Shown here: positions 3,084-21,347 of the stretch, piece by piece
Layout: the number at the start of each line of letters is the position of its first letter
Numbering within the stretch: position 1 is the first letter of the stretch
Origin: a virus
Length of the DNA stretch: 64,000 nt
IMG/VR virus record: IMGVR_UViG_3300033144_003384
Coordinates: 1-64,000 of that record
Direction: 5' to 3' (one strand)
The notes under the pieces: model-generated
Told to the model about the DNA's origin: nothing
Seen by the model: the letters and a program-made list of their open reading frames with translations, nothing else
Database searches by the model: none
Position numbers and translations under genes: made by a program

Positions 3084-3548
3084 TTGGCTAAGGGAGTTTC
3101 ACCCAATCCCAACCCCCTAGCCACTATAGTTCAGAATACCAAACAAAAGCAACGCAACAGAACGAACAAACCCGAGCTACATGAATCAAGTCTTCCAAAT
3201 CCGTTACTTCAAACAAACGACTGGCAGGAGTTTGCTAACTGTCGTGGATCGGGCCACCACATGTTCCCGAGAGGGCACAAAGACATCAGCTACATCACGA
3301 AAGCCAGACAGATTTGCAGGGAGTGCGAGGTGCGGGAACCATGTCTCATTGATGCCCTCCAGTGGCCTGCAACAGACATGAACGGCGTATGGGCCGGGTT
3401 CACCCCAAGACAGTTAGCTCAGAAGCAGAAAGAGTTGGGCATCGTCCCGACGCGACCAACGATTGCGCAGATATGGAACGACCTGACAAAGAACAGACCG
3501 GAAGATCAGGGGTCCATTCCGATGCCGCCCCTCGAACCGCTCATTTAG
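3084..3548 (+). CDS. whiB: WhiB-family Fe-S transcription factor
   Basis: WQEFANCRG...MFP...ARQICRECEVREPCL...GVWAG: four Cys plus G(V)W(A)G turn. Confidence 0.9.
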   Translation: MAKGVSPNPNPLATIVQNTKQKQRNRTNKPELHESSLPNPLLQTNDWQEFANCRGSGHHMFPRGHKDISYITKARQICRECEVREPCLIDALQWPATDMNGVWAGFTPRQLAQKQKELGIVPTRPTIAQIWNDLTKNRPEDQGSIPMPPLEPLI

Positions 3549-20254: not shown

Positions 20255-20573
20255 CAAAAGGAGATTTGGCCCCCTGCTCCGGCGGGGGGCTTTTCCTGTG
20301 CCGCCGGGACTGTTGGAGTACACTGAAGGCATGAAGTACAAGAAGTGCGACGACTGCACGAGATATGTCCCCGCCTCCCAGGTAGCCCCGATCGGGGCAC
20401 TCCTTCGGTGCGATGAATGCACTGATTTCGAGACGATGACAAGGCTTCTCCCCCGCCAACCGGAGGAAACGTGGGTCGAGATGTGGGACCACGAAAACCC
20501 TTTCAGCCCATACGATGATGGCCGTGGGTATTACGCTCCAGTATATGTGGCGTAGCCGGGGCTAATTGGGCAC

Positions 20574-20605
20574 AAAAGAAAGGCCGCCCGCTAAGGCGAC
20601 CCTTC
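20574..20605 (-). terminator. Intrinsic terminator closing the ncRNA operon
   Basis: Minus GAAGGGTCGCC-TTAGCG-GGCGGCCTTTC followed by TTTT. Confidence 0.7.
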
Positions 20606-20651
20606 TCGTTTTGCTCTGACCCGTTTTGCTCCAGTTGGAGTGGGTACTGGC

Positions 20652-20731
20652 TGGTGGAGCTGGCGGGAATCGAACCCGCTTCCAGACATTTGCACTTCGG
20701 CATTTCAGTCTGTCGAAACCATTACAGCCCC
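20652..20731 (-). ncRNA. ssrA: Mini-tmRNA: tRNA-like domain only, 80 nt, no tag ORF
   Basis: GGGGCTG TAATGGTTTCGA CAGAC [20 nt] GTCTG GAA GCGGG TTCGATT CCCGC CAGCTCC ACCA; G3-U70 pair, tmRNA-type D-loop, P2a, T-arm and encoded CCA. Confidence 0.85.
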
Positions 20732-20732
20732 T

Positions 20733-20812
20733 TGGTGCCAACCTGCGGAATTGAACCGCAGCCCCTTTCCCGATATCACTCGGGGGTTACCTTGGGTGTT
20801 TATCCCGTTGGC
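20733..20812 (-). ncRNA. Atypical tRNA-like RNA (acceptor stem, T-arm and ACCA; no canonical anticodon arm)
   Basis: GCCAAC...CTGCGG TTCAATT CCGCAG GTTGGC ACCA; internal CCCGA-GTGATA-TCGGG has a 6-nt loop. Confidence 0.7.
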
Positions 20813-20813
20813 A

Positions 20814-20986
20814 TGGTAGTTGCTCGATCCCCCTCCGGAGAGTGGGGGCAGTAGGGAGGCTATCCGCGTCTTACCTTTTCAGCAGGGCTCGTATTAGGTT
20901 TCCCCGCGCAGTCCCCGTTGGGGGCGATGCGGGTTTCGCTGCCGGAGGTTCACTCCCGTCCCCACACTCAGGGTGGGGATCGAACT
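20814..20986 (-). ncRNA. ~173-nt rod-shaped structured RNA (6S/Ms1-like candidate) ending in ACCA
   Basis: Nested pairings GTTCGATCCCC/GGGGATCGAGC, GAGTG-GGGG/CCCC-CACTC, GGGAG/CTCCC, GGCAG/CTGCT, CCCC/GGGG. Confidence 0.6.
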
Positions 20987-20990
20987 GTCA

Positions 20991-21051
20991 CTATTCAGTT
21001 GTCAAGGTGCTTTACTACCTATAGTGTCTCACATAACCACCCTCTTGTCAA
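20991..21051 (-). promoter_or_regulatory. Promoter plus rrn-type boxA-like antitermination sequence
   Basis: TTGACA-17-GACACT, then GCACCTTGACAACTGAATAG resembling Gram-positive rRNA-operon boxA. Confidence 0.6.
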
Positions 21052-21119
21052 GGGTTATCTCGGATTGTTTTATCTAATAAGCACTTGACACACTATGCTC
21101 AGTAGTATACAATGGATGT

Positions 21120-21347
21120 ATGCTACTAACTACTATGACACTCCGAGAGACATACGCCGCGCTCCCGTCTGCACAGACGGAACGGGTAACACGCTTCTGG
21201 TTCAAGTCGCCGTGCTACTTCGTAAGAGCAATCGACGTCGCCATTCACATCACGCTACCAGAGTTGATCGACGGCTTCATGCCGATATCGGCTGCGTGGC
21301 TCCGAAAGGAATCGCCACGCTGGGGTCGAAGCTGGAGAAGTTGGTGA
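21120..21347 (+). CDS. 75-aa hypothetical protein, paralog of 30101-30328, leaderless
   Basis: TTGACA-17-TACAAT-6nt-ATG; ends SPRWGRSWRSW. Confidence 0.8.
   Translation: MLLTTMTLRETYAALPSAQTERVTRFWFKSPCYFVRAIDVAIHITLPELIDGFMPISAAWLRKESPRWGRSWRSW

Follow-up and report, generated by a model that had tools for sequence, protein, structure and literature searches.

The DNA analysed here, referred to as the window, comprises positions 1-64,000 of the 83,756-base IMG/VR record IMGVR_UViG_3300033144_003384, which has an estimated completeness of 56%. Genes for a helicase, a primase, exonucleases, ParB, RuvC, Rad52 and an endolysin, identified using PHROGs and Pfam, define a phage region devoted to replication and metabolism. 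A 565-nt intergenic gap in this region is occupied by three putative RNA genes, all located on the minus strand. The first of these, a 173-nt stretch here called the rod because it folds into a long irregular helix, is followed by a gene that looks like that of a tRNA (the look-alike) and by a tag-less mini-tmRNA gene. The features referred to in the text are the following (positions in the window, except for the last entry):

21051-21023, minus strand: promoter of the RNA operon, with the -35 hexamer TTGACA at 21051-21046, a 17-nt spacer and the -10 hexamer GACACT at 21028-21023; transcription is predicted to start at A21016
21016-20987, minus strand: predicted leader of 30 nt, placed from the promoter geometry
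20986-20814, minus strand: rod RNA (173 nt), described by its fold (z -3.66) and pair probabilities, with no Rfam match; an open-reading-frame (ORF) scan of the region found no minus-strand ORF of at least 30 amino acids overlapping it
20813, minus strand: spacer U, seen in the sequence between the ACCA of the rod and G+1 of the look-alike; proposed RNase P cleavage junction
20812-20733, minus strand: tRNA look-alike, with a cloverleaf as its minimum-free-energy (MFE) structure
20731-20652, minus strand: tag-less mini-tmRNA, matching Rfam family RF00023
20606-20572, minus strand: intrinsic terminator, composed of a hairpin and a U run
3084-3548, plus strand: gene for a WhiB-family transcription factor (Pfam, E 6.5e-12)
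80637-83605 of the record (L098 16637-19605), plus strand: cluster of 14 tRNA genes (ARAGORN, 14; Rfam, 12 at gathering score)

The WhiB family is a marker for actinobacteria and actinobacterial phages. Because the window contains a gene of this family as well as a gene with a leaderless start (see below), an actinobacterial host is pointed to, i.e., judged from its gene content, the record probably belongs to an uncultured phage with a host among the actinobacteria. Neither SmpB, a CCA-adding enzyme nor a peptidyl-tRNA hydrolase is encoded in the 83.7 kb of the phage record. The true tRNA cluster is located about 60 kb from the rod, and two gaps in this cluster contain ORFs of 201 and 111 amino acids, respectively.

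The junctions within the array are regular, with one spacer base each: the ACCA of the rod is followed by U and the first G of the look-alike, and the ACCA of the look-alike is followed by A and the GGGG with which the mini-tmRNA begins. All three RNAs of the array encode ACCA; CCA is encoded by 2 of the 14 true tRNAs of the phage and by none of the eight other phage mini-tmRNAs described below. A 243-nt contig from a public sequencing run, which may derive from the source sample, is identical to 20677-20919 without variants; it crosses the junctions without difference, and these are thus not an assembly seam. Three sequencing runs are listed for the region, all from one sample, and no RNA run is found among them.

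The promoter of the array belongs to a family with the pattern CTTGACA-N17-TATACT. In the window, a TATACT-like -10 element is found at a distance of 16-18 nt in 17 of the 38 CTTGACA sites, compared to 2.6% of 20,000 random positions; members of the family are spread across the window (first base of TTGACA at, e.g., 14030, 17162, 19869, 21085, 23041, 23060 and 27923). The operon promoter was missed by a generic sigma-70 scan because its -10 hexamer matches TATAAT at only three of six positions. A divergent twin promoter at 21085-21113 drives the gene at 21120-21347, which starts 7 nt after its -10 hexamer and is therefore leaderless. By analogy with this gene, transcription of the RNA operon would start near A21016, which would give the 30-nt leader. 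In the region between the two transcription units (20987-21148) short inverted repeats are found, pairing 21021-21031 with 21086-21096 and 21058-21068 with 21138-21148; they set each -10 region opposite the other promoter and, judged by this arrangement, may serve as an operator. The 162-nt fold of this divergent promoter region is unremarkable (z -1.91), although, of the 173-nt stretches scanned on the minus strand, the one starting at 20976 has the largest folding residual after correction for GC.

At the downstream end, a strong hairpin followed by a U run is found at 20606-20572 in the fold of the entire 456-nt unit. A terminator-type Rfam match is found at the same position (ctRNA_p42d, 24.6 bits), and a simple terminator scan did not list this terminator. 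The array shares it, head to head, with a converging gene on the plus strand whose end lies at 20555. The interval separating the mini-tmRNA from the terminator contains two exact copies of a 10-nt motif, CGTTTTGCTC as read on the plus strand, spaced 15 nt apart (20607-20631).

The mini-tmRNA is the only Rfam family found in the window at gathering score (RF00023, 71.9 bits at a gathering score of 47, E 5e-26, model positions 1-374). It consists of the tRNA-like domain (TLD) only, with 18 nt in place of the 312-nt inner part. A weak permuted-tmRNA match extending to 20495 (24.2 bits, cut-off 47) was rejected, as it lies inside the converging protein gene. Using a single pattern, eight further tag-less mini-tmRNA genes (L003-L010) were found in IMG/VR; their inner loops have in common a small hairpin preceded by an A-rich stretch. 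A rod is found upstream in none of ten other mini-tmRNA loci, i.e., these eight and two arrays of tRNA plus mini-tmRNA genes, and is therefore not a regular companion of the mini-tmRNA. According to those passages of PMC4131195 that cite Mao et al. 2009, a TLD-only RNA strongly inhibits tmRNA, perhaps via titration of SmpB. At least one neighbour of the rod is thus plausibly a decoy.

The look-alike is composed of a 6-bp acceptor stem and a 6-bp T stem, which together give 12 stacked pairs, as do the 7 and 5 pairs of a normal tRNA, as well as a T loop with the sequence UUCAAUU and the 3' ACCA. In addition, it has a 3-bp D-like hairpin and a hairpin with a 6-nt loop at the position of the anticodon arm. 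The cloverleaf has a free energy of -31.9 kcal/mol (z -2.48). Neither ARAGORN (noise only at relaxed settings) nor the Rfam tRNA model calls this gene. The 24-mer at its 3' end has no exact match in 185,579 species genomes, so that the look-alike neither copies the end of a known host tRNA nor represents an attP-type fragment. With the look-alike alone as query, blastn against phage records returned five records, all at E 8.

In the RNA sense, i.e., along the minus strand from 20986 to 20814, the rod has an MFE of -77.4 kcal/mol (ViennaRNA). An initial, sequence-only reading had delimited it at exactly these positions, with an 11-bp terminal stem, further nested helices and a single-stranded ACCA end, all of which the fold confirms. 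The closing stem pairs nt 2-12 with 155-165, including one G-U pair, at a pair probability (P) of 1.0, the next three helices have values of 0.88-0.99 and the inner helices 0.6-0.7; for the outer 22 pairs, P is at least 0.88. In the MFE structure an 8-nt 3' tail, AACUACCA, is left single-stranded, so that the ACCA does not abut the helix, unlike that of a tRNA. The fold is retained within the 456-nt context. An alternative structure with a 12-bp stem beside the ACCA is 5.3 kcal/mol worse and a forced cloverleaf-like form 13.4 kcal/mol worse.

The rod was rejected as a tRNA: ARAGORN finds no gene in the window, and at thresholds of 70-80% only noise in the form of implausible intron models, there is no match to RF00005, and a cloverleaf is disfavoured by the energy difference given above. 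A T arm is lacking, as is any known identity element. A pairing of GGUAGU in the leader with ACUACC in the tail was also considered; it is probably irrelevant, as the predicted start at 21016 falls inside GGUAGU. On the 5' strand of the rod, GUUCGAUCCCCACC (20972-20985) matches the T-loop and 3' T-stem of the mini-tmRNA, GUUCGAUUCCCGCC (20662-20675), at 12 of 14 bases; from the sequences, this likeness could be the trace of a T-arm duplication or due to chance.

The rod folds better than any of 200 dinucleotide-shuffled controls (mean -60.9 kcal/mol, standard deviation (SD) 4.5, z -3.66). The shuffle test overstates how unusual this is: 122 stretches of 173 nt from the same phage, matched to within 3 GC points, have a mean MFE of -61.6 kcal/mol (SD 7.6), and the rod exceeds them in stability by only about 2 SD. 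A free energy of -77.4 kcal/mol is reached by 2 of 2554 minus-strand windows on a 25-nt grid, on which the exact frame of the rod does not fall. The plus strand of the same stretch has an MFE of -84.3 kcal/mol (z -3.32), with 1 of 200 shuffles folding as well; its structure contains 10 G-U pairs among 61, that of the minus strand 3 among 52. Thermodynamics alone establishes neither an RNA gene nor its strand.

It might therefore be considered that the object of interest is on the other strand or in the DNA itself, i.e., a plus-strand transcript, a small protein gene, a palindromic binding site or a mobile hairpin. The equally good fold of the plus strand would fit such a view, as would plus-strand ORFs of 56-66 amino acids that overlap the region and a 34-nt imperfect inverted repeat found there. 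However, transcripts entering on the plus strand from the gene with its end at 20555 run into the terminator at 20572-20606, and a promoter for this strand was not found in the interval 20606-20986. Furthermore, the products of the plus-strand ORFs are of low complexity and gave no tblastn match in 89 loci, except for parts that overlap the mini-tmRNA gene. With one copy in the 83.7-kb record, the rod was also rejected as a repeated element. Taken together, an explanation of this type is highly implausible.

The sequence-only reading had also described a central asymmetric bubble and, from it, a candidate RNA of the 6S/Ms1 type. An asymmetric unpaired region is indeed present, but it is made up of two loops on the 3' side (RNA nt 85-99 and 115-128) rather than one large central bubble: in one, UGA faces 14 nt, and in the other about 5 nt face 15 nt. 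Between them, weak helices of 4 and 6 bp (P about 0.6) are formed, and MFE and centroid structures agree that the loops are one-sided. In 6S RNA, a large central bubble that is unpaired on both strands is found between the closing stem and the terminal stem. A search of Rfam 15 (E up to 10, on 801 nt and on a 216-nt stretch) yielded no family on the rod at gathering score or at E of at most 1, an absence that would include any model of Ms1; the best chance matches are at 11-15 bits. The models of 6S (RF00013), SRP/4.5S, RNase P RNA, Y RNA/YrlA and the forms of tmRNA do not match the rod at E up to 10.

An RNA that, like 6S or Ms1, takes the host RNA polymerase holoenzyme or core from host promoters would nevertheless agree with a length of 173 nt, a mostly helical structure and unpaired internal stretches, all of which fall in the 6S range. 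In addition, the -35 element is perfect in all 17 phage promoters, and promoters with a strong -35 are reportedly, in work by Cavanagh et al. from 2008, the least sensitive to 6S; the phage could thus afford a 6S mimic because its own promoters have strong -35 elements. These same promoters, at least 17 of the sigma-70/SigA type, need the host holoenzyme, and this requirement, together with the missing 6S match (even at E 10 on the 216-nt stretch) and the absence of a central bubble with strands of comparable length (3 vs 14 nt and about 5 vs 15 nt in the loops), argues against a polymerase sponge. The tRNA-type end and the neighbouring genes point instead to the translation or tRNA machinery. 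A 6S/Ms1-like function is consequently very unlikely, and this half of the original interpretation is not supported, while the possibility that the rod is an unrecognised RNA class still stands, i.e., it may represent one.

The same reading judged a detached mRNA-like domain to be improbable, which agrees with the data. The alternative, that the rod supplies the mRNA-like or coding part of a tmRNA made up of several pieces and works with the neighbouring tRNA-like domain, draws on the fact that it adjoins a TLD-only tmRNA and that two-piece tmRNAs occur in phages, e.g., in Xanthomonas phage JGB6. In the latter, the two-piece permuted tmRNA (OQ436456, about 52.67-53.08 kb; L002 2452-2865) carries the tag VTANDSYFEVALAA (Rfam 113.9 and 94.7 bits; also found by ARAGORN), and the only annotation of the JGB6 record at this locus is a hypothetical protein on the opposite strand. 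Among the nine stop-terminated frames in the leader and rod, none finishes with Ala-Ala or with residues resembling a tag end (the ends are SKAP, GLRGET, YEPC, VKHLDN, TVRSPP, VWGRE, EKVRRG, STLTTE and RALLKR), and tmRNA models match 20652-20731 and its flanks only, not the rod. For a duplex of the rod with the mini-tmRNA TLD, the energy is matched or bettered by 94 of 300 shuffled partners (z -0.45), and the order of the genes is the reverse of that in permuted tmRNA genes. The tmRNA-piece reading is largely refuted and, as a description of the rod, scarcely credible. A duplex between the rod and the look-alike is likewise no better than shuffles (z -0.51).

The two long unpaired stretches on a stable scaffold would also suit a regulatory RNA, in which the 3'-side loops (15 and 14 nt) pair with host or phage mRNA. 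Within the 64-kb window, however, the 15-nt loop has one other match at up to three mismatches, compared to 1.17 expected, and the 14-nt loop has none at up to two mismatches. We regard a base-pairing role as improbable.

Relatives of the rod were sought in several ways. A blastn search (word size 11) of 50,697 phage records, with the 501-nt array as query, returned a single record, that of Xanthomonas phage JGB6, in which only the T arm of the mini-tmRNA is matched. When the query was restricted to the rod (E up to 10), two phage records were returned, with one 22-nt chance match at E 7. In IMG/VR, no exact match was found for the 20-mer at the 3' end of the rod or an 18-mer from loop 1. An 18-mer from loop 2 was found at four loci, which represent one unrelated AT-rich virus sampled four times; the identity stops after 20 nt and the match was dismissed as chance. 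Blastn (word size 7) and nhmmer searches against 89 loci gave a best E of 1.7, and blastn over 177 loci a best E of 0.78. A covariance model (R1) was built from the rod as its single sequence; such a model is weak, so that distant relatives are compatible with its empty results. In 97 sources (1.15 Mb) it recovered only the rod itself and its reverse strand, in 80 metagenome loci of helicase relatives (0.65 Mb) nine matches, all at E of at least 2.4 and at most 11.1 bits, in 42 whole viral records nothing, and in 14 further loci, including those of T4, DS6A and JGB6, three matches of at most 8.7 bits.

The surroundings of the array were followed in the same manner. Relatives of the helicase were found in IMG/VR (86, of which 80 were used), in metagenomes (213, of which 80 were used) and in genomes (four); all are at most 54% identical (about 35-54% in the nearest phages), with no synteny around the array. 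For a DUF932 protein and its 75-amino acid neighbour, no relatives were found in IMG/VR. Whole records of 49 relatives contain no RF00023 match over the cut-off, and in 12 of these records tRNA-sized sub-threshold matches are seen. Because no homologue was found in anything searched, not one base pair of the rod is backed by covariation.

These results bear on the simplest alternative, i.e., that the structure is incidental and the rod is a GC-rich 5' leader of an operon of look-alike and mini-tmRNA, which would be degraded after the RNase P cut and at most protect the 5' end. This view is consistent with a fold only about 2 SD better than that of GC-matched phage DNA, with the lack of relatives and of covariation, and with the observation that other mini-tmRNA genes manage without a rod. 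On the other hand, 22 outer pairs with P of at least 0.88, together with an exact ACCA and a one-base junction as in both of the following genes, represent more order than a spacer needs, and the GC content is raised to 63% at the rod, compared to 51-58% across the window. An incidental leader is, on balance, unlikely, and we consider the rod to be probably a real, discrete RNA.

The strongest clue to what this RNA would be is its operon context, with a look-alike and a mini-tmRNA directly downstream. We tentatively propose a minus-strand operon of three RNAs with the rod as its first cistron; the rod would be a stable RNA that originates from tRNA processing and acts as a protein-binding decoy. 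According to this proposal, a primary transcript consisting of the 30-nt leader, the rod, the tRNA look-alike and the mini-tmRNA would run from the phage promoter to the terminator and would be cut by the tRNA-processing enzymes of the host. Bacterial RNase P prefers U-1/G+1 and an RCCA tail. It would cut before G+1 of the look-alike, where U is found at -1, after which the lone extra U would be trimmed to leave ACCA; we lean, if only slightly, towards an RNase P-defined 3' end. The product would be a stable RNA, for the most part double-stranded, with a length of about 173 nt, or about 203 nt if it retained the leader, and with a ready-made tRNA-type ACCA 3' end. The rod and its two neighbours could then each present a tRNA-like acceptor end, that of the rod being carried on a long helix, to a host factor that acts on tRNA ends or tRNA-like RNAs, although a decoy function, taken by itself, is doubtful.

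A wider version of this proposal is a three-part tRNA-end decoy cassette, in which the rod would represent a new class of phage RNA and the trio would titrate host factors that recognise or modify tRNA 3' ends. Toxins of the MenT/AbiEii and CapRel types act on CCA ends, by extension or pyrophosphorylation. Candidate targets of the cassette are thus CCA-end extending or pyrophosphorylating abortive-infection toxins, SmpB and RNase P itself. This wider version is rather improbable; if it were true, the 14 real tRNAs of the phage and the ribosomes would be kept working. The mini-tmRNA is thought to block the host ribosome-rescue system, and the cassette is compact (about 450 nt) and clonable. Because the rod is a singleton without comparative support, it is of value as a lead rather than as a result.

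With 6S (RF00013) and Ms1 the rod has in common the size class and a rod shape with internal unpaired regions; it differs in the absence of an Rfam match and of a two-sided central bubble as well as in its tRNA-type 3' end, and we know of no 6S gene with such an end and tRNA-like neighbours. Precursor 4.5S RNA and other RNase P hairpin substrates offer a parallel in form and in the proposed maturation, as they are long irregular hairpins with a short single-stranded C-rich 3' end that are matured by tRNA enzymes. The difference here is that the rod has no match to the SRP model and that no conserved SRP domain IV motifs are seen.

A second comparison is with mycobacteriophage DS6A, for which a TLD-only tmRNA is listed (tmID 11587, tmRNA Website; Hudson, Lau and Williams 2014, PMC4131195). 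As far as these entries describe it, the TLD-only type is the family of the downstream neighbour of the rod, not of the rod itself, and suggests a decoy logic for the operon. In DS6A neither a rod nor a look-alike is found upstream and CCA is not encoded; the rod, in turn, has no tRNA-like domain.

The closest comparison is with phage T4, where the small RNAs RNAC and RNAD, also named species 1 and 2 stable RNAs, originate from the tRNA region; the portions of PMC3014915 and PMC9697503 that concern them give their roles as unknown, and in 2022 they were still described as "of yet unknown functions" (PMC9697503). In what these sources say of them, the products of rnaC and rnaD resemble the rod in being small non-coding RNAs (139 and 119 nt, respectively) transcribed with tRNA genes. 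In the T4 record, the two genes abut tRNA genes (tRNA-Arg) by a few bases, as the rod abuts the look-alike with a 1-nt spacer. Most of rnaD is helical, and the A that comes after it completes a CACCA end; rnaC folds better than its shuffles (z -4.57). At the gene level, the rod shows the traits that define the RNAC/RNAD kind, i.e., it is located on the same strand as the tRNA-like genes that it abuts, is non-coding, and has a promoter and terminator jointly with them. The systems also differ: rnaC has a canonical T arm, which the rod lacks, and the R1 model finds nothing in the T4 locus, so that the likeness is one of kind and not of sequence family. Furthermore, the T4 RNAs are located at the end of a true tRNA cluster, while the rod is about 60 kb from the cluster of its phage and ahead of two tRNA mimics, and the hosts are unrelated.

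To our knowledge, no function is known, half a century on, for any T4-type stable non-tRNA phage RNA. By analogy, the best reading is that the rod would be a phage stable RNA that rides on tRNA processing, so far as a single example. What is unusual is its company, i.e., a mini-tmRNA and a stunted tRNA, with an encoded ACCA in all three. Small stable non-tRNA RNAs alongside tRNAs have been known in phages since T4; the unit described here adds a mini-tmRNA to this company and, with its common tRNA-type end, restricts the hypotheses to the machinery of tRNAs and of quality control in translation.
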